Notes: generated from the sequence alone by a model not told the origin. A DNA stretch of 21,650 nucleotides from Candidatus Blackallbacteria bacterium (GCA_051715345.1 JBPXJQ010000004.1:89019-110668), one strand, 5' to 3'. Shown: positions 1 to 17,335, counted from the first letter of the stretch. Program-made: numbers and translations.

Positions 1-461
1 CTGTAAGCAGCGGTATCGACATCAATTGAAAAGGTTGAAAGTGGGTTTTTTAAGGCCTCCAGAAAGGGATTCTCTGCAATTTTGTCGTAGCCTTCGGTGT
101 TAAATTCTTTATCTGTTGGGCTCTGATCTTTGGGGGTCATATCCTGGGGGGCCTGTCTCAGAAGTGGGCTTTCGTTCACCTTGCCACCCGTTACCATGCC
201 AGTGGTGACAGGTTTATTGGCCAGGGCTTCGGATTTGAGTTTGCGGGGGGGAGCGGGGGCCTGAAGGTTCATCAGTTTTTTTCCGTCATCGGATTCTTCG
301 GTGTTTAGTTGATCGACTTTGGGAGGCGCTGTTTGGGTTTTATCGGCGATCTGTGAGCCCTCTTGGTTGGCATAACAGCTGCTCAGGAGCAGCAAGAGGG
401 TCAGGCTGAGAGACAAAGGGGCTTTAAACGGGACTTTGAAAGAGATGGATTTGCGGTTCAT
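1..461 (-). CDS. Lipoprotein with a YfbK/BatA-like von Willebrand factor A N-terminal region. Only the 5' part is present; the 3' end lies beyond the window edge.
   Basis: The minus-strand ATG is at 461..459 and is preceded by GGAGG (474..470) at 8-nt spacing. It translates as [33 protein letters not shown], a signal peptide with a lipobox-like LSSC. Further on, [33 protein letters not shown] matches the conserved N-terminal motif (NTE.Y..I.EN.F......PLSTFS.DVDTASY) of YfbK-type VWA proteins. The reading frame stays open to position 1. The gene is missing from the ORF track because it is truncated by the edge. Confidence 0.6.
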
Positions 462-516
462 GGGGGCTTCCTCCGGGGTGGTTTGATTCAAAGACACACC
501 AACCCTTCACAGGTGT

Positions 517-2394
517 TCAATCCAGAAAATTGCCCGCTGGGTCCGAAAGCGGGGAAAGGGCCTGAACGTGGTAGTGATCATCAGTTGCTTGCAAAAAAGG
601 CAGAGTTGAGGCACTTAAGATCACCCGCTTGAAGCTGGGATCACCTTCATCGTAATGGGCTTCTCCACCCAACAGAGACCAAGGGCCCTGGAATTTGATG
701 CGCCCATCGGCGGCTTTAACGGTGAGGGTATAGTTCTGTGCCACCCGTGTGGGAGAGCAAAGTTTTGCGCCAGGATAGCCCGCAGGGGCCTGTAGGCAGG
801 ATTCAAGCGTGTCGGCCATGCCGCCGGAGATATTCAGGCTGTGTGTTTTGAGCAACATCGGTTCGCTAAAAGTCAATGAAAAGGCCAAAGCACGCATGGG
901 CAGTTCTATTTGTGCCACTTGCTCCAAGCGCGGTGGGGTGGTGTCGGCCTGCACCTCAAAGGCCAGGGCCTCTTCAAAGTCGCCATCGGTGAGCTTGAAG
1001 TGTTTCTCTCTGCGGGCCACGCCGCTTTTGTCTTTTATATCGCGCTGATGATTGCCAAATGAATCGAAAGCCAGGGTATAGATTGGCAACTTGGCAGGAT
1101 CTTTGTCTGTGGGCAGGGCTTTGCCAGGTTTAAAGGCAAAGGTCGCTTGGGTGTCGTCGGCATTCCAGGAGATATCAAAGGCCGAGCTGTCGAAGATGGG
1201 GGTGCCTGTTTGGTATTGGTTGAGATTGCTGTAGTTGGGTAAAAGCACAGGGGATGGCGGCCTGGGAGGGGAATAAATGTAAGGAACAGGATCTGGCGCT
1301 GTGAACATGGCGTTTATTTGACTGGTTCCCACTGTGAGTTTGCGAGGGGCAAATGCCCGAATAGCAAAGGTGTCTTCTACACTTTGACGATCCATGGGCT
1401 CAGAAAAGGTCAACACAAAAGCGGTATTGGGGGACAATAGCTTTTGATAGCGGCTGGGCAAGGCAAGTGTGACTTCCGGCTTGTCGCTTAAACCATTGTA
1501 ATTCTGAGAAAAGTTCTCTGTGAGCGGATCATCATCTGTTCCAAAGTCATGTCGATTTGAATTTGGAGAGCCGTGGTTGTTACCGGTGAGCACTTCATAC
1601 CTGATTCGCGTTGTATAGCCAGGTTTGGTTGCTTTTATTTCAAGCACAATCCCTGAAGGATTACAAGGAAATTCATAATTCCCAGTCTTTGTATGAGTTT
1701 CATCAAAAAAGGGCAAAAAGCTTTTCATGTGACGGATTTCAATTTTAACGTTATCCAGCAATTGATGCTGATCTGAAAAAACCTTGCCTCGTAAATTATC
1801 CCACCCTGAAAGCCAAGTAATAACATCTAATTCTGGGGGAATGGGATATTGTATGGGACATACCGTTTCTGGAGAAATATGACTAAAGTTAAAGGGGTTA
1901 CCAGATTCCAAAATAATCTTTTTGAGACTTGGGTAATGGAGTGTTTGTTTTCCTGGCAAAATAAGCGGTTCCTCAAAAAACGCATGAATTTGGTGAATCA
2001 TTTTGTTTTCTGAATTGAAGGCTTCTAAAGAGAGAGATGTGATGCCAATCAAATCGGTTAAGCTCAATGAAGCCTTGTTTTGAGAAAATTTTTGGGCATG
2101 GATTTTCTCATTTAATAAAAGCCGGTAATATTGAACCTGTAAAACAGGTTCCCACGTGAGTTGGAGAACATCTGGAATTTTGGGTAAAACCCTTACAATG
2201 GGCTCAACATCAGAGGTAGGCCGTGACAAAACAGCAGATGGCGTGGGACTGGCTAAAATTGCTGGAGATATTGTAGCGCTGGGAATGGGGCTGGGTTTAG
2301 GCAGAATCCCTTGAGTTGTGCAGGCACACTGGCTGCTCAATACCAATGCCAGAAAAATACAGACTGAGACGGTTCTGTGATTGTGGAAACTCAT
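517..2394 (-). CDS. Secreted multi-domain surface protein, paralog 1 of 4. It has a signal peptide, a P/S/T linker, a CarboxypepD_reg-like domain and SbsA/Big_5-type Ig-like domains.
   Basis: This is a 625-aa ORF. The N-terminus MSFHNHRTVSVCIFLALVLSSQCACTTQG is a hydrophobic signal, followed by a Pro/Ser/Thr-rich linker. IKATKPGYTTR is a CarboxypepD_reg/PEGA-like motif. FSEPMDRQSVEDTF and FSEPMLLKT are Big_5 hallmarks. The conserved HFKLTDGDFEEA is present, and the C-terminal DPAGN is typical of a Big_5 domain end. The start overlaps the stop of the upstream paralog by 4 bp. Confidence 0.8.
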   Translation of the reverse strand: MSFHNHRTVSVCIFLALVLSSQCACTTQGILPKPSPIPSATISPAILASPTPSAVLSRPTSDVEPIVRVLPKIPDVLQLTWEPVLQVQYYRLLLNEKIHAQKFSQNKASLSLTDLIGITSLSLEAFNSENKMIHQIHAFFEEPLILPGKQTLHYPSLKKIILESGNPFNFSHISPETVCPIQYPIPPELDVITWLSGWDNLRGKVFSDQHQLLDNVKIEIRHMKSFLPFFDETHTKTGNYEFPCNPSGIVLEIKATKPGYTTRIRYEVLTGNNHGSPNSNRHDFGTDDDPLTENFSQNYNGLSDKPEVTLALPSRYQKLLSPNTAFVLTFSEPMDRQSVEDTFAIRAFAPRKLTVGTSQINAMFTAPDPVPYIYSPPRPPSPVLLPNYSNLNQYQTGTPIFDSSAFDISWNADDTQATFAFKPGKALPTDKDPAKLPIYTLAFDSFGNHQRDIKDKSGVARREKHFKLTDGDFEEALAFEVQADTTPPRLEQVAQIELPMRALAFSLTFSEPMLLKTHSLNISGGMADTLESCLQAPAGYPGAKLCSPTRVAQNYTLTVKAADGRIKFQGPWSLLGGEAHYDEGDPSFKRVILSASTLPFLQATDDHYHVQALSPLSDPAGNFLD

Positions 2395-3300
2395 GGTATC
2401 AATACCTTCAAGGGAGTTTGGCTGTTTGAAATTGGGTTGCCAGCCGGGTCAACAATATCAGCATTGGCGATGATTTCGATTTGACCCCCTGAGACAAAAG
2501 CGGGATGGGAGATTTGCGTACTCAAGACAATCGTTCTAAAACTGGCATCCCAAGCTGCATAACTGGCTTCTCCCCTCAACCTAGACCATGGCCCCTGGTA
2601 GCCAACCCGGCCATCAGGGCCTGTGACCTTGATTTGGTAATTTTCAGCAGCCTTGCTGGCAGTACAGGCTTTCGCCCCCGGAAAACCTGCCGGGGCCTGC
2701 TTGCACGAGGGCAACTCATCGGCCATTCCCCCGGCAATATTTAAACTGTAAGTTTTAAGCAACATCGGCTCGCTGTACTGGAGCAATAGTGTGGGCATTT
2801 GCCCAGAAAAACCAGCCCAAAGGGCCGCTTGCAGGCTGGGCATTTGCTGATCTGCTTTGACTTGAAACTGGTATGCGTCCTCAAAATCGCCGTCGGTCAA
2901 TTTGAAATGTTTTTCTTTGCGTTCTACGCCTGTTTTGTCGCGCAGGGTGTTTTTTTCATTTGTGAAATGTTTAAACGCCACTTGGTAATGGGGGGTAAAT
3001 TCGGGGTTTTTATCTGTGGGCAAAGACAAGCCTGGTTTGAATTGAAAGGTCACTTGGGTATCATCCGTATTCCAGGAAATGTCAAAGGCAGATGCGTCGT
3101 AAATGGGGGTACCAATCCCTGACTCTGCATTGCTGGCGATCAGACCATTGCCGTGTAATGTGTACTTAAATCCCATTTCTGAAGGGAATTTATTGATGGT
3201 GTTATCCACAGATAATTTGTGGTTTTTAAAGCTGCGCACAGTAAATGTATCTTCTACTGACTGTCGATCCATGGGTTCAGAAAATTTGAGGGAGAACAGA
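2222..3300. repeat. Direct repeat, copy A (~1.1 kb). It covers the 5' end of paralog 1, the gene junction and the 3' half of paralog 2.
   Basis: Long nucleotide stretches are nearly identical to 3735..4820. For example 2391..2470 matches 3901..3980, and 2560..2940 matches 4073..4450 at about 90% by eye. The + strand ORFs 2505..2744 and 3692..4273 translate to almost the same peptide. Similarity decays near 3300/4820. The end points are approximate. Confidence 0.7.
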
Positions 3301-3905
3301 GTATCTGGAGATACACGAAAACCATTGCGAGAGGGATAGACTTGGGTGATTTCAGGGAGATCGCTCAAACCGTTATAATCGGCTGAATAGCCGCCAATAG
3401 ATTTAGAAGAGCCAAAATCGAACCGGTAGGGTGTGGTGGGATCTTCTTTATATATACTGGTTTTGTCGGTCGTTTTACGGGGAGTATATCCTGGTTTTGT
3501 GGCGATTATTTTGACTTGAATGCCAAGTGGAACTTGGGTTATCTGGTATTTCCCATTCACAGTCTGGGTTGAGCCAAAGAAGGGAACGTCAGGATGGATA
3601 CTTTCTACAGTGATTTGAACTCCATCCAGAGGTTGGTGATTGTCATCATAAACCCAACCTTCAATAATTTCATGGTGTTCTTGTCTCACGGGTGGTCTAT
3701 CAGCCTGTAACTCAGAAGGTTTTGGGGTGGGTCGTGGCAGAACAGCAGATGGCGTGGGACTGGCTAAAATTGTTGGGGAAACAGAAGCTCGGGGAATGGG
3801 GCTGGGTTCTGGCAGAACCCCTTGAGTTGTGCAGGCACACTGGCTGCTCAATACCAATGCCAGAAAAAACCAGCCTGAGACAGCTCTGTGATTGTGGGAA
3901 CTCAT
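2391..3905 (-). CDS. Secreted multi-Ig-like surface protein, paralog 2 of 4. It is a chimera with an N-terminus like paralog 1 and a C-terminal half like paralog 3.
   Basis: This is a 504-aa ORF. The signal peptide MSSHNHRAVSGWFFLALVLSSQCACTTQG is nearly identical to that of paralog 1. Motifs present are IIATKPGYTPR, FSEPMDRQSVEDTFTVRSFKNHKLSV, HFKLTDGDFEDAYQFQVKADQQMPSL and YSEPMLLKTYSLN. The C-terminal ~330 aa are about 90% identical to paralog 3. Confidence 0.85.
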   Translation of the reverse strand: MSSHNHRAVSGWFFLALVLSSQCACTTQGVLPEPSPIPRASVSPTILASPTPSAVLPRPTPKPSELQADRPPVRQEHHEIIEGWVYDDNHQPLDGVQITVESIHPDVPFFGSTQTVNGKYQITQVPLGIQVKIIATKPGYTPRKTTDKTSIYKEDPTTPYRFDFGSSKSIGGYSADYNGLSDLPEITQVYPSRNGFRVSPDTLFSLKFSEPMDRQSVEDTFTVRSFKNHKLSVDNTINKFPSEMGFKYTLHGNGLIASNAESGIGTPIYDASAFDISWNTDDTQVTFQFKPGLSLPTDKNPEFTPHYQVAFKHFTNEKNTLRDKTGVERKEKHFKLTDGDFEDAYQFQVKADQQMPSLQAALWAGFSGQMPTLLLQYSEPMLLKTYSLNIAGGMADELPSCKQAPAGFPGAKACTASKAAENYQIKVTGPDGRVGYQGPWSRLRGEASYAAWDASFRTIVLSTQISHPAFVSGGQIEIIANADIVDPAGNPISNSQTPLKVLIP

Positions 3906-4820
3906 GGTATCAATACCTTCAAGGGAGTTTGGCTATTCGAGAGGGGGTTGCCCGCTGGGTCAACAATATCAGGATTGGCGGTGATTTCAACTTGGGCTCC
4001 TGTCACAAAAGCAGGATGAATAGATTTAGAGCTGAGCACGATGGTTCTATAACTGGCATCCCAAGACGCATAACTGGCTTCTCCCCCCAGCCTAGACCAT
4101 GGCCCCTGGTAGCCAACCCGGCCATCAGGGCCTGTGACCTTGATTTGGTAATTTTCAGCAGCCTTGATGGCGGTACAGAGCTGGGCCCCCGAAAAGCCTG
4201 CCGGAGCCTGTTTGCAAGAGGGGAGTTCATCAGCCATGCCACCGGCCAAATTCAAGCTGTAAGTTTTGAGTAACATGGGTTCGCTGTACTGGAGCAAAAG
4301 CGTGGGTGTTTGTCCCGAAAAACCAACCCAACGGGCCTCTTTTAAGCTGGGCATTTGCTGATCTGCTTTGACTTGAAACTGGTATGCGTCCTCAAAATCG
4401 CCATCGGTCAATTTGAAATGTTTTTCTTTGCGCTCGACACCTGTTTTGTCACGCAGGGTGCGGTTTTCATTTGTGAAATGTTTAAAAGCCACTTGGTAAT
4501 GGGGGGTGAATTCGGGGATTTTATCTGTGGGCAAGGACAAACCTGGTTTGAATTGAAAGATCACTTGGGTATCATCCGCATTCCAGGTGAAATTAAAGGC
4601 GGATGAATCGTAAATGGGGGTGCCGTTGCTTATTTCGTAAAAATGAGGCGATCCAAAATGGGTATTTGCATCTTTCCCGTTCAAAGTATACTTAAATCCT
4701 TGTTCAGAAGGGAATTTATTCATGGTATTATCCACAGATAATTTGTGGTTTTTAAAGCTGCGCACAGTAAATGCATCTTCTACAGACTGTCTGTCCATGG
4801 GTTCAGAAAACTGCAAGATG
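3735..4820. repeat. Direct repeat, copy B. It covers the 5' end of paralog 2, the gene junction and the 3' half of paralog 3.
   Basis: This is the partner of 2222..3300. It is offset by 1511 bp, which is exactly the length of paralog 2 including its overlaps. It contains a ~90-nt indel relative to copy A around 4610..4700. The end points are approximate. Confidence 0.7.
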
Positions 4821-5581
4821 AAATCTGTTATAGGAGACAAGCCTGTACCATTGCGGGCAGGGGTCACTAAAGTGACTTCGGGTTGGTCGCTCAGACCTTC
4901 GTAAGAAGCAGAAAAATCTTCTGTAAAGGGATTTGCATCTCTACCAAAATCATAGCGGTTATAATTGGGCTGCCCCCGGTTAGCCTTGATTATTTCTACT
5001 CTGCTGCGGGACGTATATCCTGGTTTTTGAGCGGTTAAATTCACCCTAGCACCTGCCGCAGCACAGGGAAATTGATAATAACCCCTCTGTGTTTTCTGCT
5101 CGGAGTAATAGGAAAATGAATAATTATTAAATTCTGCCGTTACCCGTACATCCTCCATCAACTGAGCATTATCATCAAAAATATAGCCTTGTAAAATATC
5201 ATTTCTTGAGACCCAATCTAGCTCGGCCTGATAGACTGCAGCACAACTTTCCGGTGTAAGACCAGTTTTGGTTGGAGAATAGACACTTGGTGTTGGCATA
5301 GGAAAGTAGGGGGGGAAGGGCTTTGATGTGGGACTTACATAGGGAGTCGCTGTTGGAACCAACGCAGGTGAGGCCGTGGCAATGGGTTGCACTGCCATTG
5401 TTGGCGAAGTCGAAGGAGTCGTTGTTTGCAACGGACTGGGACTGGCAGTGGGGCTCAAAGGAGTTGAATTGCAGGCGCTGATTCCCCCCAGCCCCAAAAG
5501 CAAAATACCCCCAAGCGACAGAGCTGAGCGCTGTCTGTGAAAATGGCTGTAAAGGATGTCTTTCAATGCACGATCAGCCAT
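3902..5581 (-). CDS. Secreted or lipoprotein multi-Ig-like surface protein, paralog 3 of 4.
   Basis: This is a 559-aa ORF. The N-terminus contains LSLGGILLLGLGGISAC, a lipobox-like ISAC, followed by a long S/T/P linker. Motifs present are LTAQKPGYTSRSRVEI, QFSEPMDRQSVEDAFTVRSFKNHKLSV and HFKLTDGDFEDAYQFQVKADQQMPSL. The C-terminus VDPAGNPLSNSQTPLKVLIP is nearly identical to that of paralog 2. The stop overlaps paralog 2's start by 4 bp. Confidence 0.85.
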   Translation of the reverse strand: MADRALKDILYSHFHRQRSALSLGGILLLGLGGISACNSTPLSPTASPSPLQTTTPSTSPTMAVQPIATASPALVPTATPYVSPTSKPFPPYFPMPTPSVYSPTKTGLTPESCAAVYQAELDWVSRNDILQGYIFDDNAQLMEDVRVTAEFNNYSFSYYSEQKTQRGYYQFPCAAAGARVNLTAQKPGYTSRSRVEIIKANRGQPNYNRYDFGRDANPFTEDFSASYEGLSDQPEVTLVTPARNGTGLSPITDFILQFSEPMDRQSVEDAFTVRSFKNHKLSVDNTMNKFPSEQGFKYTLNGKDANTHFGSPHFYEISNGTPIYDSSAFNFTWNADDTQVIFQFKPGLSLPTDKIPEFTPHYQVAFKHFTNENRTLRDKTGVERKEKHFKLTDGDFEDAYQFQVKADQQMPSLKEARWVGFSGQTPTLLLQYSEPMLLKTYSLNLAGGMADELPSCKQAPAGFSGAQLCTAIKAAENYQIKVTGPDGRVGYQGPWSRLGGEASYASWDASYRTIVLSSKSIHPAFVTGAQVEITANPDIVDPAGNPLSNSQTPLKVLIP

Positions 5582-7526
5582 TTAAGGTCAGGCTCACGTT
5601 GTTACGGGCGCTATCCACAGTATTGCCTGCGGGGTCCATCACATCTGCTTCAACCCGAAAGGTGAGACGCTCTCCAATTTCAAACAAGCTCGGAATTACC
5701 CCTTCGCTCAATGTTTGACCGCTGCTTAAAAGCTGAGCCAAACGGGTTTGAACGTCGGGATCTGTTGCTGCTCCGGCAAAGGCGGGCAAAGTCAGCCTGA
5801 CACTTTTGCGGCTGGCATCGCGGCTGAGATACTCCACCCGCCCACCGAGTTGGGCCCAACTGCCTTCGAATCGGGTTTGCCCCAGCGCGTCTTTGACCAG
5901 CAAAAGGTAGTTTTCAGCCGCTTTGGCAGATGTGCAATTGATGGCCCCTGGATATCCAGCGGGGGCCTGACGAAAGGCAGTAAGGCTATCACTCATGCCG
6001 CCCGCAATGTTCACGCCCAGGGTTTCGAGTAACATGGGCTCGCTGTAGTGCAGAATAAACCCGGCCCCGCGTGGCGACTGGGGATCGGGAGTGATATGGG
6101 TCAGCGTGGGTTTGACTTCGTCGATTTTGATAGAGAATTTGTAAGACTCTTCAAAATCGCCATCGGTCAGTTTAAAGTGTCTGTCACTCCGTGAAATACC
6201 GCTCTTGTCTGTCAACACGCGGTCTCCACCTGAGAATGCACGGAAAGCAACATTGTAATTGGGAACCAGGTTGCTGTCTTTGTCGGTCGGCAGCTGTTTT
6301 CCTTCTTTAAAGGAAAAAGTGGCTTCAGAGTCATCGCTGTTCCAGCTGATATTAAAGGCCGCTTTGCCCCAAATTGGGGTGCTATTGCCGGGCAAGAAAT
6401 TAGTGGCAACGAGATCTTTGCCAATCACCGTATTGGCCCCTCCTGCCACACGCAGATTGTCTGCATCCACCGTCAGTTTTCGATTGTTAAAAGCGAAGAT
6501 CATGAAATTGTTTTCAACTGTCTGTTTATCCATGGGCTCAGAGAATTTCAGCACGAAGCTGGTGTTGAACGCTACACCGGAGCCATTGCGGGCCGGAGTG
6601 ACCATCACCACTTCGGGTTTGTCGCTCAGTGCGTTGTATGCGGCAGAGAAGGTCGCTGCGCCTCCATCGGTACCGAAATCAAATCGATTTCCCTCAATGC
6701 CTTGCGGACGAGATTTGACAACTTCCACTCGACGTCGTTCTGAATAGCCTGGCTTTGAGGCCTTTATAGTCAGTGATATTGAACTTGGCACATTTTTGAA
6801 AGCATATTGGCCATAAACATCACCCTCTGTTTTATCATAATAATTAAAGGTCTGAGAATTTGAATAGACCTCCACCGTAACGCCTGAAAGGGGTGAAAAG
6901 CTGTCATCATAAATCTTGCCATAAAACGAATTCAATTCAAGATCTTCACAATTACACCTTCGGAATGGGGTTGGAGTAGGATCCGGTTGTCGTGGGGTAC
7001 GTTTGGGGGTTGGGCTCACTGAATTTATCGTATTTCGAAAGGGTTCAACTGAAGCAAGAGGGCTGGGTATAGGGTAAGGGATAGGACTGGGTATAGGGTA
7101 AGGTGTAGGGCTGGGAAGGCGGGCCTGGAGCTCAAATCTGAGTTCTCCCACAGCAGTCACCTGACCTCTGGCGTTGATACTTTCCAATTTAAGGGTGTGG
7201 CTGCCCAGGGCATAGCCGGTTAAATCCAATATCTCGCGCGGCAAGACCAAATTGTCTTTGTAAAGCTTGCCATCGAGCCAGAGGCGGTAGCTATAGGCCT
7301 CGGGTTGGGTATTCCAGCGCAGCTCATAAAAGGCGGAGGCAATGGGTTCCAGGCTGAGATTGAGGCGTGCATGCGGCAAGGAAGCCCTTGAATCAGGTGT
7401 GGGAGTCGGCGACGAGGGGGAGGGGAGAGAGAGCGGGGATTGAGAGCGGGGTTCACAGCCCCAAAGCCCCAAAACCAGACAGCAGCAAAAGATTTGAGTG
7501 GATAACCCCTGTGATCTGACCATCAA
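5574..7526 (-). CDS. Secreted or lipoprotein multi-Ig-like surface protein, paralog 4 of 4 and the most divergent. It has a YPIPSP repeat linker.
   Basis: This is a 650-aa ORF. The N-terminus MMVRSQGLSTQIFCCCLVLGLWGCEP is a signal with a lipobox-like LWGC. The Pro-rich repeat PSPTPYPIPSPIPYPIPSP is present. Motifs present are IKASKPGYSERRRVEV, KFSEPMDKQTVENNF, HFKLTDGDFEESYKF and HYSEPMLLETLGVNIAGGMSD. The C-terminus carries MDPAGN. The gene overlaps paralog 3's start by 8 bp. Confidence 0.85.
   Translation of the reverse strand: MMVRSQGLSTQIFCCCLVLGLWGCEPRSQSPLSLPSPSSPTPTPDSRASLPHARLNLSLEPIASAFYELRWNTQPEAYSYRLWLDGKLYKDNLVLPREILDLTGYALGSHTLKLESINARGQVTAVGELRFELQARLPSPTPYPIPSPIPYPIPSPLASVEPFRNTINSVSPTPKRTPRQPDPTPTPFRRCNCEDLELNSFYGKIYDDSFSPLSGVTVEVYSNSQTFNYYDKTEGDVYGQYAFKNVPSSISLTIKASKPGYSERRRVEVVKSRPQGIEGNRFDFGTDGGAATFSAAYNALSDKPEVVMVTPARNGSGVAFNTSFVLKFSEPMDKQTVENNFMIFAFNNRKLTVDADNLRVAGGANTVIGKDLVATNFLPGNSTPIWGKAAFNISWNSDDSEATFSFKEGKQLPTDKDSNLVPNYNVAFRAFSGGDRVLTDKSGISRSDRHFKLTDGDFEESYKFSIKIDEVKPTLTHITPDPQSPRGAGFILHYSEPMLLETLGVNIAGGMSDSLTAFRQAPAGYPGAINCTSAKAAENYLLLVKDALGQTRFEGSWAQLGGRVEYLSRDASRKSVRLTLPAFAGAATDPDVQTRLAQLLSSGQTLSEGVIPSLFEIGERLTFRVEADVMDPAGNTVDSARNNVSLTLNG
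7060..7115. repeat. Short tandem DNA repeat with a ~24-nt unit in about 2.3 copies. It encodes the YPIPSPIPYPIPSP linker of paralog 4.
   Basis: The sequence reads ctgggtatagggtaagggataggactgggtatagggtaaggtgtagggctggg, which is directly visible as an imperfect tandem duplication. Confidence 0.6.
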
Positions 7527-7656
7527 AAATCCCCCTCAAAAGCAGCGATTTTTCTCAAGACGCTGTTTCGAAGGGGGATGTTCCCATTTGGGCAAAAAAC
7601 CTGCGAAGGCCCCGCTTTTTCAGAGAATTCAGCCAGGTTTGCCGCTGTAAGCAGGC

Positions 7657-8877
7657 TTACGCGCCTTCAACCACCTGCGCGATTTGGATCAAACGGTTTT
7701 CACTAAAGTCTTTGACGGCGCTGTAGAAGGTGTGGCTGTCCACGGGCACCCGGCGGCGCACATCACCGAGAGTCTGGCCGGTGGTCAGGCCCCAGAAACA
7801 GGCTTCGGCATGGGGGTCGATATTCTCGGGGGGGGCCTCGGCCAATTTAATCACCACCGAATCATCGGGGAACATCTCCAACATGACTTTGGTTTCGTCG
7901 CTGCGGCGCATGCCTTCGATAATCAAATGCATGACGGAGACCTGAATGGTGCGACCGGGGGGCTCTTCGTTTTCGTTAAACGAAAAGGTGCCATCGGTCC
8001 AGCCCATCATCTCATAAGCGGCCATGGGGCCGGTTAAAAAGGGCGGGGAGCCAGAGGTTTCGGCATAATGCACTTCGCCCCGCTGCAGGTAAATTTTGCC
8101 CGATTGGGGTTTGCTGTTGATCGTGACCGAACCCGTTTTGGCATCGTTGCCGAGCATTTGCAGAATATTGGGCGGAATGATCACCGAGAGGCTGCCGCGC
8201 ACAGCCCCTGTGTCGTCTTCTTCCATTAGGGTTTTCATTTCGCGGACCTCGGCCTCGGATTGTTCGAGCTTGCCGAGAATCATATTCAGTCGGGTATTGT
8301 CTTCTTTGAGCTTGTCGAGGGTTTGTTGCAGCAAGGTATAGAGCTGAGAGTTCTCAATTGCGATCGCAGCAATATTGGCCAAAGACGAAAAGAGAATCAG
8401 GTCGGTTTCGTCGAAGGTGCCTTCGATTTTATTGAGCACCTGCAAAATACCAATCACCTGATCGCCCGAACGCGACAAGGGCACACAGATAATGGAACGG
8501 GTTTGGAACTTGCTCTCTTCGTCCACGCCTTTGTAAAAGCGCTCGTCTTTGGTCACGTCGGGCACAATCAGAGGCCTGCCTGTTTCGGCGACATGGCCTG
8601 CAATCCCTGTGCCCACTGGAATGCGCATGCTCTCAACCACTTTGCCCGCTTCGCCCTGGGCAAAGTGAAAAACCAGCTCTTGGGTGCTTTTATCCAAAAG
8701 TGCCAGCGAAGAAGCTTCGGCATTCATCACGATTTTGGCCACGTCAATAATGGTACGCAGCAAGACATCCAACTCCATTGAGGAGTTAATGCTGTTGTTG
8801 ATTTCCAATAATACCTGAAAGCGTTCGACGAATTTCAGGGCTTCTTCGTGGTTCAGATTCTCGATATCTATATCCAT
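7657..8877 (-). CDS. Protein with a GAF domain, a coiled-coil and a DUF4388 domain. It is a putative sensor or regulator.
   Basis: This is a 406-aa ORF. The N-terminal ~180 aa have a GAF-like pattern (LLRTIIDVAKIVMNAEASSLALLD...GIAGHVAETGRPLIVPDV...SIICVPL...GILQVLNK). A coiled-coil segment follows (LQQTLDKLKEDNTRLNMILGKLEQSEAEVREMK). Then comes a DUF4388-like block (GSLSVIIPPNILQMLGNDAKTGSVTINS...GKIYLQRGEVHYAE...GTFSF). The RBS GAGGT lies 6 nt upstream of the ATG. Confidence 0.7.
   Translation of the reverse strand: MDIDIENLNHEEALKFVERFQVLLEINNSINSSMELDVLLRTIIDVAKIVMNAEASSLALLDKSTQELVFHFAQGEAGKVVESMRIPVGTGIAGHVAETGRPLIVPDVTKDERFYKGVDEESKFQTRSIICVPLSRSGDQVIGILQVLNKIEGTFDETDLILFSSLANIAAIAIENSQLYTLLQQTLDKLKEDNTRLNMILGKLEQSEAEVREMKTLMEEDDTGAVRGSLSVIIPPNILQMLGNDAKTGSVTINSKPQSGKIYLQRGEVHYAETSGSPPFLTGPMAAYEMMGWTDGTFSFNENEEPPGRTIQVSVMHLIIEGMRRSDETKVMLEMFPDDSVVIKLAEAPPENIDPHAEACFWGLTTGQTLGDVRRRVPVDSHTFYSAVKDFSENRLIQIAQVVEGA
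7838..7845. repeat. G8/C8 homopolymer tract inside the GAF-DUF4388 CDS.
   Basis: The sequence ctcgggggggggcctc contains 8 consecutive G. On the coding strand it reads GCC CCC CCC GAG, encoding APPE. This is the longest homopolymer I noticed in the window. Confidence 0.5.
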
Positions 8878-8934
8878 GCACTACCTCAACACTTAGCTTT
8901 CAGCGAATCGTAAAGATATTATTACACATTCCGC

Positions 8935-10590
8935 TTAACCGGGAAACAGCCGAACAATATTGCTCTGGGCTCGCACTTCGAGTTCTTCGGGCTTTTCTGC
9001 GCTTTTGTCGCCCACGGCTTTGTAAAAGTCGGTATTGTAGGGGCGGGTGCGAATCACCACCGGCATGGGCACAGCATAACCCAAGATCAGCGCCTGTTGT
9101 TTGGGATCGAGCTGCGAGAGCACCGTGCGCAAACTCTGGCTGCCACTCACGCCCGTAAAAACCGCGTCAATGTCTTTGTCGTCGTTGAGCAGGGCCGTGA
9201 TGCGTGTGCCGACCTGGCTGAGAATTTCGCTGTCGATGCTCGACGGGCGCTGATCGACAATCAGCAGGGTGACTGAATATTTGCGCATCTCACGGGCGAT
9301 GGTGCCAAAGATCGTCTGACGGGCAATCGCCGGAGCCAAAAATTTATGCGCCTCTTCGATCGTGATCACCAATTGGCGGGGTTTGACGTTGTTGAGCGGG
9401 TCGGCGTTGTAGATGTCGGATTTATCGACATAGCTCTGGTGAATCCGGCGGGTGATGATATTGGTGGCCAGCATATAACTGAGCAGGCTGTTGTGGCCGC
9501 CAAATTCGAGCACCACGTGTTTGCCGCTTTCGAGGTATTTCAGAATCATCTGAATCGCGTCGCCACTGCCCTCATCTTTGATATAACTCAGGTTCGTGAC
9601 CTTGATCAATTTGCGCTGCAGGGCCTTGAGCGCACCGCTGTGGCCCTTGGCACTGGCGACAAAGTCGTCGATCTCGTTGGCCGACATCTGCAAAAATTGC
9701 TTGAGCCAATTGCGGCCCAGGGCCTCTTCGAGAATCATCGCCGACTCAATGCTGGCCTCGGAGAGATTGAGTTCCTGTTTGATCAGGGCCAGGTCTTCGA
9801 TCTGGATCTGGCGCAGAGGAATGCTGAGTTCTTGGGCATCTTTGATTCCGCGCTGGCGCGAGGACTTGAGATCGAGGGTAAAAACCACCACATCGCGGCC
9901 AAAGAGCTGTTTAAGGCCTTTGACCACTTTTTCGCCTTTGTTTTCACTCAGGGCCTGCCAGCCATATTCGTTGTGCATGTCAAAGATCAAATTGACAGCC
10001 ACCTGCTTTTTGATAATCCCTGAAAGCACGAGCCGGGTTAAAAAAGACTTGCCTGTGCCGGATTTGCCAAAAATCGCGTTACTGCGTTCGACCAACCGGT
10101 CGAGATCGAGACAGAGCGGCACGTCCATATCCAGGGGCATGCCAATAAAAAAACGGGCCTTGTGTGGATCGTCTTCTTGGCCAAAAACGGTGGCAAAATC
10201 TTGCTCTGAAGCGACCTTCACGGGGGCAAAATGGGAGGGAATGGTTTTGACTGGGCGCAATTCCTCTTCGGGGTCGGCGTCAGCACTGAGGGCATTTTTT
10301 TCGAGCATCAACATCGGCTGGAGCGAAACCGTGCCCAAGGTGCCTGTGCCCTGCAAAATCTGAGCCAAAAAATCGCCCTGAGCTGGCGGGTTGAGCAAAA
10401 TCTGGGGATTGGAGGTGGTCAGAGCGACATCGGTGATCAGGCAGAAAAAGCGCTTGAGCTGGCCTTCGACCACCACAAATTGCCCCACGCGAATGTCTTC
10501 CACGTTCTGATCAGCTGCCAGCCGCATTTTTAAGCCACCCGAAAGTGAACCTTCAATAATGGTGCCCAAAACAGGGGAGGGATGAGGCAA
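8935..10590 (-). CDS. HerA-like ATPase of the DUF87 / FtsK-HerA P-loop superfamily, with an N-terminal HAS-barrel.
   Basis: This is a 551-aa ORF. The N-terminal beta-rich segment MPHPSPVLGTIIEGSLSGGLKMRLAADQN...VGQFVVVEGQLKRFFCLITDV resembles the HerA HAS-barrel. The Walker A motif is FGKSGTGKSFLTRLV. A later hydrophobic strand ending in acidic residues, VVLEFGGHN or LLIVDQRPS, is a Walker-B candidate. The C-terminus LILGYAVPMPVVIRTRP is typical of HerA/DUF87 ends. Confidence 0.7.
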   Translation of the reverse strand: MPHPSPVLGTIIEGSLSGGLKMRLAADQNVEDIRVGQFVVVEGQLKRFFCLITDVALTTSNPQILLNPPAQGDFLAQILQGTGTLGTVSLQPMLMLEKNALSADADPEEELRPVKTIPSHFAPVKVASEQDFATVFGQEDDPHKARFFIGMPLDMDVPLCLDLDRLVERSNAIFGKSGTGKSFLTRLVLSGIIKKQVAVNLIFDMHNEYGWQALSENKGEKVVKGLKQLFGRDVVVFTLDLKSSRQRGIKDAQELSIPLRQIQIEDLALIKQELNLSEASIESAMILEEALGRNWLKQFLQMSANEIDDFVASAKGHSGALKALQRKLIKVTNLSYIKDEGSGDAIQMILKYLESGKHVVLEFGGHNSLLSYMLATNIITRRIHQSYVDKSDIYNADPLNNVKPRQLVITIEEAHKFLAPAIARQTIFGTIAREMRKYSVTLLIVDQRPSSIDSEILSQVGTRITALLNDDKDIDAVFTGVSGSQSLRTVLSQLDPKQQALILGYAVPMPVVIRTRPYNTDFYKAVGDKSAEKPEELEVRAQSNIVRLFPG

Positions 10591-10627
10591 ACGGGGTCTC
10601 CTTTTGAAGCCTGTTTTGCGACAAGCT

Positions 10628-10653
10628 AAATACAGATGTATACATCTATATTT
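10628..10653. promoter_or_regulatory. Near-perfect 26-bp palindrome with a perfect 14-bp core AGATGTATACATCT at 10634..10647. It is a candidate operator in the promoter region of the HerA-like gene.
   Basis: AAATACAGATGTATACATCTATATTT has a reverse complement that differs at only 2 symmetric positions. It lies in the 105-bp intergenic gap between the DHOD-like stop at 10696 and the HerA-like start at 10590, about 40-60 nt upstream of that ATG on the minus strand. The context is AT-rich. Confidence 0.5.
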
Positions 10654-10695
10654 TACCGCAAAAAGCAGAAGAAAACCAGTGGTTTTAAGTGGCCG

Positions 10696-11709
10696 CTAGA
10701 GTGTCAGAGATGAATGCCCCGTATAACCCCCCTGCAACATTTTGACATATTGCACCCGTTCAAAAGCAGAGGGGTCGGGGCAGTACATTTGGCTGACACT
10801 GCCCTGCAATTGGCGAATAGAATCATATTCATGTTCTTCCAGCCAATGGATCAGCTCCAATTCCAGTGTGCGCACATAGCCAATACCCCGGCGCAGCAAA
10901 ACCGAGGCCATTTGGGTAATTTTGGCGCCCGCCATCAGCAATTTGAGCACGTCTTTGGCCTGATGCACCCCTGTGCTGGCAGCCAGATCGGCTTCTATCC
11001 GGCCAAAGAGCAATCCGATCCAGGTCAGAGGCAGGCGCAATTCCTGGGGCGAACTCAAGAGCAAATGGGGCTCGACCTCCAAGGTCTCGATATTGATGTC
11101 TGGCTGGTAAAAGCGATTAAACAGCACCAAGCCATCGGCACCCAGCGCCGAAAGCTGGTGGGCAAAATGACCAAAATTGGTAAAAAACGGGCTCAGTTTT
11201 ACGGCCACAGGAATCGTGATACTGCATTTGATCTCATGCACAATGTCGAGATAGTTTTGCTCGATCACCGCTGCTGAGAGCATGGGATCGGTTGGGATTT
11301 GATAAAGATTGAGTTCAAGCGCATTGGCCCCAGCCGCTTCCAGCTCTTTGGCATAGCGAATCCAGCCCCCCCGACTGTAGCCATTGAGACTGGCAATAAT
11401 CGGGATTTTGAGGGATTGCCGGGCAGCGGCAATATGTTCGAGATAGCGTTCGGGGCCCACGTGAAAATGGGGCGAACCCGGAAAAAAACTCTGGGCTTCG
11501 GCAAAGCTATCGCTGGCAAAGCTGTGGTAATGCTCCAATTCATCGTGGCTTTGCACCAATTGTTCTTCAAACAGGGAGTGCATGACCACAGCTGAAATAC
11601 CCGCTTCTTCCAAGGCGCGGATATTGTCGAGGTTTTCGGAAAGGGGAGAGGCAGAGGCCACCAAAGGTGTGCGCAATTCCATGCCCAGATAATGGGTAGA
11701 CAGATCCAT
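10696..11709 (-). CDS. Dihydroorotate dehydrogenase-like TIM-barrel flavoprotein, the DHOD-family partner commonly found next to PFOR.
   Basis: This is a 337-aa ORF. MDLSTHYLGMELRTPLVASASPLSENLDNIRALEEAGISAVVMHSLFEEQ matches the N-terminal signature of DHOD-like proteins found downstream of por/nifJ. The ATG is 2 nt after the nifJ TAA (TAAaaATG). A GGAGA RBS sits inside the nifJ 3' end. Confidence 0.8.
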   Translation of the reverse strand: MDLSTHYLGMELRTPLVASASPLSENLDNIRALEEAGISAVVMHSLFEEQLVQSHDELEHYHSFASDSFAEAQSFFPGSPHFHVGPERYLEHIAAARQSLKIPIIASLNGYSRGGWIRYAKELEAAGANALELNLYQIPTDPMLSAAVIEQNYLDIVHEIKCSITIPVAVKLSPFFTNFGHFAHQLSALGADGLVLFNRFYQPDINIETLEVEPHLLLSSPQELRLPLTWIGLLFGRIEADLAASTGVHQAKDVLKLLMAGAKITQMASVLLRRGIGYVRTLELELIHWLEEHEYDSIRQLQGSVSQMYCPDPSAFERVQYVKMLQGGYTGHSSLTL

Positions 11710-11711
11710 TT

Positions 11712-14700
11712 TTAATTTTCTCCTTGGTTCGGGGTCGTTTCAGCCATCTGCTGGTAGAGTTTCCAGCGGGAATGAATTTCTTGTTGGGCCTGTTCCAACA
11801 AGAGTTGGGCCTGTTGGGGCCGTGTGCTGCCCAGCAAACGGAAGCGATTTTGCCGGTCGTAGTAATTTTTGAGCGGCATTTTCGGACCTTTGCTGTCGAG
11901 TTGCAAGGGTGATTCCCCTTTTTCGGTGCGCGCAGGGTGATAGCGATAAAGTGGCCAGGCCCCGCTGTCTACCGCTGCTTTGTGTTCTTGCATGCCCGTA
12001 TTCATGGGAATGCCGTGGGCGATACAGTGGCTGTAGGCAATAATAATCGAAGGGCCAGGCCAGGCTTCGGCCTCCAAGAAGGCCCGCAGGGTCTGCTCAT
12101 CTTTGGCACCCATGGCCACTTTCGCCACATAGACATGGCCATAAGTCATGGCCATCATGCCCAGGTCTTTTTTGCCCAGGGGTTTGCCCCCGGTGGCAAA
12201 TTTGGCCACGGCCCCTTTGGGCGTCGATTTGGACATCTGCCCGCCGGTATTGGAATAGACTTCGGTATCGAGTACCAAAATATTCACATTGGCCCCACTG
12301 GCCAGCACATGATCGAGACCCCCAAAGCCTATGTCATAGGCCCAACCATCACCGCCAACCATCCACAGGCTCTTGCGCACCAAGGCATCAGCCAATTCCA
12401 TCAATTGTTGAACCTGTTGCGCTTGGGATGGTTCAAGGCCTTGAGACAGTTCAGCCAGTGCAGTTTTGAGTACATTGACCCTTTCGCGTTGGGCATAAAT
12501 TTCGGACTCCTCACTTTGGTCGGCCCCAATCAGGGCCTGCACCAGATTCCAGTCCAAGGCCGGCTCTAATTTGAGCAATAATTCCAGCGCCATTTCCTGT
12601 TGTTTGTCCAGGGCCAAACGCAGCCCCAGTCCAAATTCGGCATTGTCTTCAAAGAGTGAATTGGACCAAGCCGGTCCCCGACCTTCGCTGTTTTGGCTCC
12701 AGGGGGTGGTGGGCAAATTGCCACCATAAATTGAGGAACAGCCCGTGGCATTGGCCACCAGCAGCCGGTCACCAAAGAGTTGGCTGAGCAATTTGAGATA
12801 AGGCGTTTCGCCGCAGCCAGCACAGGCGCCCGAAAATTCAAACAGCGGCAACATGACTTGTTGCTGGCGCACGGAGGTCTGTTTGATCATGCTGCGCTTG
12901 AGTTCTGGCAATTTCAGGAAATAATCCCAATTTTCGACCTCGACGGCCTTGTGAGCGGGTTGGGGAGACATATTGATGGCTTTGAGCCGGGCCTCGGATT
13001 TGTTGCGGGCAGGGCAGACGTCGACGCAGATGCCACAACCGGTACAGTCTTCGGGGGCGACCTGAAGGGTATAATTGAGGCCGTCCCAACTGCGCTCGCT
13101 GGCAGAGACCGAGCGAAACCCAGCTGGGGCCGTGTTTAACAAAGCGGGTTCGTAAACCTTGGCGCGGATCGCGGCGTGGGGGCAGACCAGGGCACATTTG
13201 TTGCACTGAATGCAGACAGCCGGATCCCAGATCGGGATTTCGGCTGCCAGATTGCGTTTTTCCCATTGTGAGGTGGCCGTGGGATAGGTTCCATCGACAG
13301 GCAGGGCACTGACAGGCAAGAGATCACCTCTGCCAGCCAACATCGCACCCAACACGTTTTGAACAAATGCGGGGGCATTTGTCGGGACAGAGAGATGACG
13401 TTCACGGGTGCTGTTGCAGGTTTCTGGCAGGGGAATCTGATAGAGATGGGACAGGGTCTGATCGACGGCCTCCAGATTGCGTTGGATTACCGCTTCGCCT
13501 TTGGCGGCATACGATTTGCGAATGGCTCCCCGGATCGCATCGAGGGCCTGTTCGCGGGGTAAAACTTCTGAAATGGCAAAGAAACAGGTTTGCATGATCG
13601 TATTGATGCGGCCACGCATGCCACTCATATTGGCCACCCGTCCGGCATCGATCACATAGAAGTGGGCTTTTTGTTCAATTAAACGGGCCTGAACGGGGTG
13701 AGGGAGCTGGTCCCAGACGGTCTCTTTGTCCAAAGGACTGTTGAGCAGAAAAACGCCCCCCGGCAACAGGGCATCAAGCAAATCTGGCCGCTCCAAAAAC
13801 ATCGGCTGGTGACAGGCAATAAAATGGGCCTGCTGAATCAAATAAGGGGCTTCAAAACGCTCAGGGCCAAAACGCAGATGCGAAATGGTAATGGCCCCAG
13901 CTTTTTTGGAATCGTAGACAAAATAGCCTTGGGCGTGTTGCGCGGTTTCTTCGCCAATGATCTTGATCGTGTTTTTATTGGCGCCGACGGTACCATCAGA
14001 GCCCAGACCATAGAAGATGCCACAATTGGCCGCCTCCGGCTCATGAAAAAGCAGGGGATCATAAGCCAAATGGGTAAAGCTGACATCGTCTTCGATCCCA
14101 ATTGTAAAGCCGTGTTTGAGTTGAGCACTGTTTAAATGGGCAAAGATGCCTTCGGCCATCGCCGGGGTAAACTCTTTTGAGGAAAGGCCAAAACGCCCGC
14201 CAATGATTTTGGGAAATTCTGCCAAATCGCCCAGCATATGGGCCTGTTGCAGCGCAGCGACAACATCAAGAAAGAGAGGCTCCCCCCCACTGCCGGGTTC
14301 CTTGCAACGATCCAGCACAGCCACCCGTTTGACACTGTTAGGCAGGGCCGAGACAAAAGCCGAAGCTCCAAACGGCCGATAGAGTCGGACCTTGAGCACC
14401 CCCACTTTTTCGCCACGTGCATTGCATTGCTGAACGGCCCGAAGAACCGTTTCGGCCCCTGAACCCATCACCACAATCACCCTTTCGGCTTCTGGATGGC
14501 CCTGGTATTCGTAGAGCTTGTACTGACGTCCAGTCAAGCTGGCAAATTGGTCCATCTGGGCCTGCAAAAGGGTGGGCAGGGCGGCATAAAAGGGATTTAC
14601 GGTTTCGCGCGACTGAAAGTAGACATCGGGATTTTGGGCTGTGCCCCGAATAAACGGGTGTTCAGGGGAGAGGGCCCGCTTGCGATGCGCTTGAATCCAA

Positions 14701-17051: not shown

Positions 17052-17335
17052 AATTTTAACAGATGCTGTCTTTCTTTGCTGGTTTTTGCCAAATGTTCCC
17101 CGTCTCGGCAGGCTCTGTTTTTTGTTGATTAAAATACGATTAAATATCCCTGCTAATCAGCAGAAAAAAAACAACTTCAGGGTATACACTGAGACAAGGT
17201 GGATTGTGACCAAACCAACATTGTTTTCACAAAAATAATGTGAATATTTAAAGGCCAGCTCAGTTATGATTCTCTCAGCAGCTTTACCCATTGCCGACCT
17301 GCTATTGCCCGCCTCAAGCAAGAGGAGACAATCGT
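17052..17335. promoter_or_regulatory. A 284-bp AT-rich divergent intergenic region. It presumably holds the promoters of the REC-DUF4388 gene (leftward) and the IPT/TIG-NHL lipoprotein gene (rightward).
   Basis: This is the longest non-coding stretch in the window. It contains a direct repeat TTTAACA(N11)TTTAACA near 17043..17071, a CTGCTaatcAGCAG inverted repeat followed by A8 (~17150..17172), and an AGGAGA RBS at 17323..17328 that is 7 nt before the TTG at 17336. Confidence 0.4.

Follow-up and report, generated by a model that had tools for sequence, protein, structure and literature searches.

A repeat across gene junctions and a chimeric gene in a tandem array of predicted lipoprotein genes from a Candidatus Blackallbacteria bacterium

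The subject of this analysis is a stretch of 21,650 nucleotides (nt) from a Candidatus Blackallbacteria bacterium (GCA_051715345.1 JBPXJQ010000004.1:89019-110668), hereafter the window, in which positions 517-7526 hold four paralogous, co-oriented and overlapping open reading frames (ORFs) on the minus strand in the order D-C-B-A. The 3' part of gene C together with the start of gene B recurs one gene unit further downstream as the 3' part of gene B together with the start of gene A. Gene B is a chimera and gene A has a foreign leader, and both probably arose by ectopic recombination within the array.

The array and its repeat

ATGA stop/start overlaps join C to B (3902-3905) and B to A (2391-2394), D and C overlap by 8 nt, and D, C and B are 38-48% identical to A in overall amino acid sequence. 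The four genes are probably co-transcribed; a promoter and terminator scan of positions 300-7800 gave no convincing internal terminators and no informative promoter. The genes are listed in array order.

5574-7526, minus strand: gene D, 650 amino acids; first gene of the array, outside the repeat (from ORF calling, Pfam matches and synteny in relatives)
3902-5581, minus strand: gene C, 559 amino acids; its 3' 900 nt are the upstream part of repeat copy 2
2391-3905, minus strand: gene B, 504 amino acids; a chimera, residues 1 to ~205 of B type and ~205-504 of C type
517-2394, minus strand: gene A, 625 amino acids; codons 1-60 are a B-type leader, the remainder is A-type

When positions 1-9000 were compared with themselves by blastn, 2215-3284 aligned with 3726-4810 at 84.8% identity over 1086 columns (17 gap columns, 1213 bits, E = 0); MAFFT alignment of the two copies gave 914 of 1070 positions identical (85.4%) with 15 gap columns. 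An earlier reading made from the sequence alone (the sequence-only reading) had placed a direct repeat at nearly these coordinates, with an offset of 1511 bp and copies straddling gene junctions, and these points were borne out. Both ATGA overlaps lie inside the copies, and 1511 nt is the start-to-start distance from B (3905) to A (2394). Its other figures needed revision: identity is ~85% by both methods rather than ~90%, the proposed ~90-nt indel is a 15-nt length difference within a ~70-nt divergent patch, and the shared C-terminal part is ~300 amino acids long (B 205-504 versus C 255-559) instead of 330. The repeat begins at the FSEPMD motif of one gene, takes in the stop codon and ends at codon 60 of the gene that follows; it consists of three ungapped blocks spaced 1511, 1511 and 1526 nt apart, the shift to 1526 coming past the 15-nt indel. 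Its parts are as follows.

3726-4810, minus strand: repeat copy 2, donor-type and natively placed; made up of ~905 nt from the 3' end of C, the ATGA overlap and 180 nt from the 5' end of B
3285-3725, minus strand: spacer between the copies, B codons 61-207, encoding a CarboxypepD_reg-like beta-sandwich; 441 nt, unique in the window
2215-3284, minus strand: repeat copy 1, the recipient, in non-native contexts; made up of ~890 nt from the 3' end of B, the ATGA overlap and 180 nt from the 5' end of A
3102-3170, minus strand: divergent patch, partner of 4613-4696 in C; contains the 15-nt length difference
2580-2655, minus strand: 76-nt block, an exact match to 4091-4166 in C

The longest exact runs common to both copies measure 76, 57, 50, 46 and 36 nt. 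The other self-matches that blastn found among the four paralogs had at most 69% identity over at most 250 nt, and outside the tract every paralog pair had 26-62% nucleotide identity in 30-codon windows. The spacer (3285-3725) has amino acid identities of only 36-38% to A past codon 60 and to C ahead of codon 255.

B is a chimera and A has a foreign leader

The window array was compared with syntenic arrays from eight other assemblies; all related loci (L numbers below) come from Candidatus Sericytochromatia metagenome-assembled genomes (MAGs), among them JADMKE (L002), JBFWRL (L005) and JBIKWL (L004 and L001). Against the JBFWRL B ortholog the identity is 88% for residues 1-57 of B and 83% for residues 58-205. 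Across five B orthologs the leader has 74-88% and the middle 76-93% amino acid identity, with 92-93% between the middle and L031_g5 and L033_g7. The spacer region is orthologous to B-type genes elsewhere, with 87-97% nucleotide identity to L005_B over 3905-3470. For residues 206-504 of B the identity is only 25-53% to the B orthologs and 76-90% to JADMKE C and JBIKWL C; against window C the segment from residue ~205 to 504 is 83% identical as a whole and 86-90% without the divergent patch. Bootstrapped neighbor-joining trees placed residues 58-204 of B with the B orthologs (96-100%) and residues 205-504 inside the C clade (100%).

The leader of A shows the complementary picture. Residues 1-57 are 79-80% identical to B-type leaders generally and 95% identical to the L031_B leader, but only 17% (JBIKWL, JBFWRL) or 37% (JADMKE) identical to the leaders of A orthologs, and the neighbor-joining tree put the A leader inside the B clade (73%). 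Beyond the leader the gene is of A type, with 76% identity to L036_g3 in the middle and 89-91% identity to the A orthologs of JBIKWL and JADMKE over the last 225 residues. Since each of the five B orthologs has retained its distinct B-type C-terminus, these segment identities make copy 1 the recipient and copy 2 the donor-type copy in its native context. Segment identities and incongruent trees thus uphold the earlier proposal that the second paralog, B, is a chimera made by recombination in a tandem paralog array. That proposal had also given B the signal peptide of A, which is the reverse of what we found: the B leader is native (88% to JBFWRL) and runs on into a B-type middle, and the A leader is the foreign, B-type one.

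Arrays of related genomes

The locus varies greatly among relatives. L004 and L001 overlap end to start, giving the order GAF-D-C-Y-B-A-Z for MAG JBIKWL, where Y is an additional paralog missing from the window and Z is a downstream VWA-type lipoprotein gene. Other orders are D1-X-D2-C-A-Z in JADMKE, D-X-Y-B-A in JBFWRL and D-C-A'-Z in L036, and L031 and L033 have seven to nine family genes apiece. As JBIKWL is the closest genome by its flanks, the window has lost at least one gene. The suggestion that such arrays expand, contract and shuffle holds for this family, in that relatives hold 4 to ~9 genes with differently combined modules. The GAF and HerA proteins beside the array are 96-99% identical to those of the window, and overall identities of the array proteins, which are visibly mosaic, are 33-82%. 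A metagenome scan with B peptides found no relatives.

Some of these loci have peculiarities of their own. In JBIKWL two ORFs (8794-9999 and 9986-10807 of L004) take the place of a single gene D, suggestive of a frameshift. L030_g6 (10001-11809) is another chimera, its leader and middle being A-type and its C-terminal part C-type, showing that recombination at the FSEPMD block is not confined to the window.

Exchange points and module boundaries

The two ends of the tract differ in character.

3265-3284, minus strand: left breakpoint, with the 17-nt block TTTTCTGAACCCATGGA (FSEPMD) at 3268-3284 and its C copy at 4794-4810
2212-2217, minus strand: right breakpoint, 2215/2214, between A codons 60 and 61; in-frame

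The 17-nt block is common to B-type and C-type genes. A 93-nt stretch of B reaching down to 3265 is an exact match to L031_B, and a 198-nt stretch starting at 3266 is an exact match to L030_g6 in its 3' part; a B-type and a C-type exact run meet at this point, and hence the switch lies in or beside the block. At the right joint B-type sequence ending in CGG CCT ACC is followed by A-type sequence beginning TCT GAT GTT GAG, which corresponds to L036_g3 from codon 139 onward. L036_g3 is the closest A-type gene, and window A is without its first FN3-like domain. No shared sequence or homology was found at 2215/2214, which falls within a disordered Pro/Ser linker.

The linker is a recurrent module boundary, because junction-spanning direct repeats in two other loci end in it as well. 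These repeats, in L002 (2446-4479 versus 6513-8540, 2052 nt, 83.7%) and L033 (1-689 versus 5793-6478, 689 nt, 88.5%), extend 160-183 nt into the next gene and stop within the Pro/Ser linker. Leader similarity breaks off at residues 43-60 in several paralog pairs. Across loci a D-type C-terminus is followed by a C-type leader at 8 of 11 junctions, and four different middles come after that leader; C-terminal parts tend to move together with the leader of the gene that follows. The FSEPMD boundary was assigned with a hidden Markov model, a regular-expression version having missed about half of the genes.

Age of the tract and later patchwork

In the 3' part of the tract B and C have a synonymous divergence (dS) of 0.52-0.56, against 2.2 outside it, and the ratio of nonsynonymous divergence to dS in the tract is ~0.17. 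The leaders of A and B (57 codons) have a dS of 0.18. The difference between 0.5 inside and 2.2 outside means that the similarity stems from shared ancestry, not constraint. We considered purifying selection as the cause and rejected it on these dS values and on the C-termini of the B orthologs, which are quite different. For flanking genes the dS is 0.21-0.31 between the window and JBIKWL or JADMKE and 0.77 between the window and JBFWRL. The sequence-only reading had called the rearrangement recent, which does not fit: the dS of the tract exceeds the 0.21-0.31 of the flanks, and copy 1 is about as near to foreign junction units as to copy 2. Either the event that formed the repeat is not recent, or the copies have been overwritten since.

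Scoring in 60-nt windows revealed that copy 1 is a patchwork. Positions 3284-3070 are 97-100% identical to L030_g6, and most of 3068-2700 is 93-98% identical to L033_g5 or L030_g2, with an interruption at ~3008-2830 where copy 2 is nearest or joint-nearest (90-95%). The block at 2655-2580 is an exact match to C, and its identity to the other C-type sequences in the sample is only 65-68%; this 76-nt block is a short conversion tract between B and C that is specific to the window. The leader part of copy 1 reaches 96-98% identity to the L031 Y-B junction. In the ~70-nt divergent patch B has the allele type of JBIKWL C and L030_g6, and C has that of JADMKE C; the patch begins directly past a low-confidence surface loop of the first Ig-like domain of the B model (confidence dip at residues 239-250).

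Gene C is itself an allelic mosaic, with a middle 94-99% identical in nucleotides to JBIKWL C and part of its 3' half 97-100% identical to JADMKE C, including an exact run of 155 nt (4746-4592) shared with the latter. Copy 1 has an exact run of its own, the 198-nt stretch 3069-3266 shared with L030_g6, although the L030 flank is only 85.5% identical to the window. For the genomes with these 155-198-nt runs in general, flanking DNA is only ~85-94% identical. Together with the 76-nt block, the runs indicate that short segments moved both within the genome and between diverged lineages; the runs themselves imply either that lineages have exchanged parts of the array or that polymorphism has been long-lived. 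A pairwise homoplasy index (PHI) test, run alongside the Hudson-Kaplan minimum number of recombination events (Rm), was significant for the C-type 3' parts (p = 0.0005).

Origin of the repeat

Our preferred explanation, to which we assign a probability of roughly 0.6, is that a junction-spanning unit was copied by ectopic recombination and replaced the next junction downstream. The unit, made up of a C/Y-type C-terminal part, the stop/start overlap and a B-type leader, would have been copied between misaligned array units by ectopic homologous recombination, displacing the C-terminal part that B had of its own and the own leader of A. The upstream exchange point would lie within the block at 3268-3284, which all the paralogs have in common, and the downstream end would be a non-homologous in-frame joint at 2215/2214 in the disordered linker of A, where joints would be tolerated. 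The products would be a B protein with B leader and middle and a C-type C-terminus, and an A protein with a swapped leader. Later exchanges of short tracts, both between the copies and with alleles or paralogs of related lineages, would have given the 85% patchwork. The donor was presumably the upstream unit of the same array, and we infer one non-reciprocal event rather than two reciprocal ones; diversity would be what selection favored.

The sequence-only reading had proposed unequal crossing-over within the array. Recombination there stands, but a single crossover is not a sufficient cause, since the 441-nt spacer is unduplicated. A lone recent unequal crossover, or a tandem segmental duplication, would give an offset of one gene unit and a repeat across the junction, as found, but it predicts a head-to-tail duplication of a 1.5-kb unit; the spacer has no second copy, and the 15% divergence and dS of ~0.5 are above the flank divergence to sister genomes. 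Neither a complete head-to-tail unit nor near-identical copies, the marks of a fresh tandem duplication, were found, and this explanation can practically be dismissed. The unduplicated spacer calls either for a conversion-type patch or for at least two events. Two steps could have been unequal crossing-over at the FSEPMD block (B with C or with a lost Y) to give C-B*-B-A, then an in-frame illegitimate deletion of ~1.7 kb from codon 61 of the intact B to about codon 139 of A, fusing the B leader to A. The first step is the classical route drawn for the lpl genes of Staphylococcus aureus (PMC2568036), and the second would account for the non-homologous right joint and for an A gene without the first FN3-like domain of L036_g3. 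Duplications and deletions do happen, as relatives have arrays of 4 to ~9 genes, and the D-C-Y-B-A-Z order of JBIKWL means that the window lost at least one gene. The end product would be the same as that observed, and the final sequence cannot separate this route from one-step conversion. However, two rare events are needed and the C-B*-B-A intermediate is in no sampled genome, so we regard the two-step route as a serious but rather unlikely possibility and slightly favor the conversion-type route over crossover and deletion because a single event suffices.

Import of the tract from another strain or lineage, by transformation or other transfer, with a Y/C-type 3' part plus B leader integrating one unit downstream, is improbable in our judgment, although several observations would suit it. 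Copy 1 shares its 198-nt exact run with L030_g6 despite a flank of 85.5% identity, the A leader is 95% identical in amino acids to the L031_B leader and 80% to that of window B, the 5' part of B has a dS of 0.25 to the JBFWRL ortholog against 0.77 for the flank, and PHI signals recombination even in the flanking GAF gene. On the other side, DNA from outside should have recombined with the C-B junction, its homologous site, rather than one unit further down; the 76-nt block found only in B and C of the window shows that exchange within the genome does occur; and the exact runs are accounted for just as well by blocks of ancestral polymorphism or by allelic recombination at a later time. A metagenome-assembly chimera, in which the mosaic arose wholly or partly by switching between paralogs or co-occurring strains, seems highly improbable. 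The data are all short-read MAG or metagenome contigs, the copies have six exact runs of at least 31 nt in common, a contig from the Logan collection stops inside the array at 6144 with no full-length A, B or C there, and block-wise 100% matches to different references are also what strain-switching would produce. Against this, the outer joints cannot come from k-mer path switching, as the right one shares 0 nt and the left one 17-20 nt; the copies differ at 15% of positions and hence were not collapsed; all ORFs are intact and B gives a confident structural model; and the junction-spanning architecture is also present in independent assemblies of other samples. Assembly chimerism is thus unlikely at the outer joints, and may have contributed to the internal patchwork.

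Returning to junction-unit copying by ectopic recombination, several findings count against it. Copy 1 is 85.4% identical to copy 2, 83.3% to the L031 Y-B junction and 86.5% to L030_g6 (3'-gene part); being as close to foreign units (83-86%) as to copy 2 (85%), it has an uncertain immediate donor, which need not be copy 2 of the window. A right-hand joint without homology is atypical of simple RecA-type conversion. The PHI test was equally significant in the flanking GAF gene and so does not single out the array. A Mantel-type test was weakly favorable, with rho of 0.30 across the junction versus 0.14-0.34 within genes (all values 0.14-0.40). No sampled relative has the B and A chimeras, and intermediate states were unobserved. 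Finally, all sequences are short-read MAG or metagenome contigs, with no independent assembly over 2215-4810.

Assembly support

In the Logan collection exact-protein look-ups of full-length A, B and C returned no record. A Logan contig assembled with k = 31 from run SRR31089860 matches the window at 100% identity between 18877 and 6144 and breaks off at the latter position, inside gene D at the HFKLTDGD motif; no window repeat of at least 21 nt touches the contig end. The break points to a further family member at some other place in the genome or to heterogeneous strains in the sample. The earlier warning of an assembly-collapse hazard was overstated for the repeat itself, the longest exact run being 76 nt, yet the k = 31 contig does stop inside D.

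Protein modules

Each gene is built of three modules: a leader of ~45-60 codons comprising signal peptide, lipobox cysteine and Pro/Ser linker; a variable N-terminal beta-sandwich part; and a C-terminal pair of Ig-like domains that starts at the conserved FSEPMD motif. From their sequences the D, C, B and A products are predicted lipoproteins of beta-sandwich and Ig-like domains, and they would be exposed at the cell surface. Cys25, which comes after a hydrophobic segment and is followed by a Pro/Ser-rich stretch, is at least 90% conserved among 61 homologs. The lipoboxes of D (LWGC) and C (ISAC) are canonical, those of A and B (QCAC) atypical. Pfam Big_5 scores were above the 23.6-bit threshold for D (30.6) and C (25.9) and below it for A (21.5) and B (19.2), and the CarboxypepD_reg scores of D (29.9) and B (26.4) were both under the 32.3-bit gathering threshold. 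The predicted content of gene D is FN3-like, CarboxypepD_reg-like and Ig-like (Big_5) domains.

An AlphaFold2 model of B had a mean predicted local distance difference test (pLDDT) score of 86. Residues 1-73 are mostly of low confidence and probably disordered apart from a signal-peptide helix at 9-20, the linker at 23-73 being disordered. A beta-sandwich follows at 78-148, then an Ig-like domain at ~186-290 and a further beta domain at 306-500. Foldseek comparison of the model with the PDB gave only generic tandem Ig, pilin and antibody matches and no functional lead.

The array also contains a family of 71-nt direct repeats, one copy per paralog (811-881, 2718-2788, 4229-4299 and 5988-6058), at 72-83% identity to the reference copy. 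They correspond to a second conserved motif, YSEPMLL...GGM, and are another potential homology anchor for recombination within the array.

Genomic neighborhood

Upstream of the array Pfam matches identify genes for a GAF-PatA_N protein, a HerA-like ATPase, a dihydroorotate (DHO)-dehydrogenase-like protein and a pyruvate:ferredoxin oxidoreductase (PFOR), and in relatives gene D orthologs likewise sit after the GAF gene. Two PatA_N (DUF4388) proteins are encoded nearby (7657-8877 and 15453-17051), one fused to GAF and the other to a response-regulator receiver domain, and a HerA/HAS-barrel ATPase (8935-10590) and a 1235-residue TIG/NHL-repeat protein (17291-20998) are also near the array. Between the HerA-like and GAF-PatA_N genes JBIKWL has a three-gene insertion of ~5.2 kb (L004 2286-7511), two of its genes being lipoprotein-like, where the window has a 57-nt spacer (8878-8934).

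Downstream of the array, positions 1 to ~463 on the minus strand are the start of a VWA-type lipoprotein gene (Z). In L033 the first part of a VWA/YfbK_C-domain gene has 89% nucleotide identity to this segment (1-463). Six related loci (L001, L002, L003, L031, L033 and L036) have a gene with this leader downstream of the array, in L003 after an extra gene of ~1400 amino acids, and it thus forms a conserved downstream anchor.

A Pfam scan of the ten large window ORFs, smaller ORFs being unscanned, found no reverse transcriptase and no recombinase. A diversity-generating retroelement (DGR) or invertase-type mechanism was rejected on that basis.

Discussion

The closest known parallel is the S. 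aureus lpl family (Tsuru & Kobayashi 2008, PMC2568036), where a conserved intragenic block is the recombination site, 5' and 3' ORF parts are shuffled, the conserved unit is a 3' part plus the junction plus the next 5' part, and additional unequal crossovers mimic conversion. The window resembles it in having co-oriented tandem lipoprotein paralogs (here four on the minus strand with 4-8-nt overlaps), a conserved nucleotide block within the ORF as exchange site (the 17-nt FSEPMD block), and incongruent 5' and 3' phylogenies of one ORF (B and L030_g6). Deletions, duplications and apparent conversions among genomes are a further resemblance. The window tract, the repeats of L002 and L033 and the C-type leader that follows a D-type C-terminus at 8 of 11 junctions suggest that 3' part, junction and next 5' part may travel together here too, with weak statistical linkage across junctions. 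Of the four defining features of lpl three were found, and the data partly support the fourth, joint inheritance across the junction. The window array can therefore be placed with lpl-type junction-spanning recombination units, a pattern already known from S. aureus. The two differ in protein family (here an unrelated one of CarboxypepD_reg-like and Big_5 Ig-like domains) and phylum (Sericytochromatia), and here the genes overlap by 4-8 nt with no intergenic region. Moreover, the co-traveling 5' part is a leader of ~45-60 codons that ends in a low-complexity linker short of the next conserved block. As only the leader travels, each gene has three shufflable modules, whereas lpl genes have two.

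Gene conversion underlies surface variation in the babA/babB chimeras of Helicobacter pylori and in vlsE of Borrelia. The pilE/pilS genes of Neisseria are described as another gene-conversion system for surface variation (PMC2188579). Non-reciprocal transfer among surface-protein paralogs, in-frame chimeras and a patchwork of nearest donors are common to all of these and the window. In contrast to pilE/pilS and vlsE, there is no layout of expression site and silent cassettes here, as the four genes are complete with start codon and leader, and hence cassette-type antigenic variation is not matched. Nor were dedicated cis elements or a recombinase seen in the window, and the host is a free-living environmental bacterium, not a pathogen.

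Changes in copy number and shuffling of tandem paralogs by homologous recombination, on a clonal time-scale and confirmed by long reads, are outlined for the "gene accordions" of S. aureus USA300 tandem clusters (Nat Commun 2020, PMC7360770) and for tandem esaG/tsaI immunity paralogs (Microb Genom 2022, PMC9484751). Array length varies in the present family too. Compared with those systems as outlined there, the variation seen here is only between lineages and the tract is old.

A more far-reaching idea, which we hold to be doubtful, is that the array is a high-turnover cassette system whose leader, middle and C-terminal modules are continually re-assorted by conversion of short and long tracts inside the array and by lineage exchange. 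It is hinted at by the 155-198-nt exact runs with ~85-94% flanks and by array proteins of 35-90% identity beside neighbors of 96-99%. In such a system the unit of C-terminus plus next leader and the disordered linker may be built-in recombination joints. If true, the array would be a free-living environmental counterpart of pathogen antigenic-variation loci, perhaps under pressure from phages or grazers. Read-level signs of ongoing module turnover would raise the interest of the finding.

In practical terms, orthology calls, gene trees and pangenome clustering of these lipoproteins mislead unless made per module, and short-read assemblies of the locus are fragile. The host belongs to an uncultivated sister lineage of the photosynthetic Cyanobacteria, and if turnover is fast the locus would be a tractable case of surface-protein diversification in free-living bacteria.

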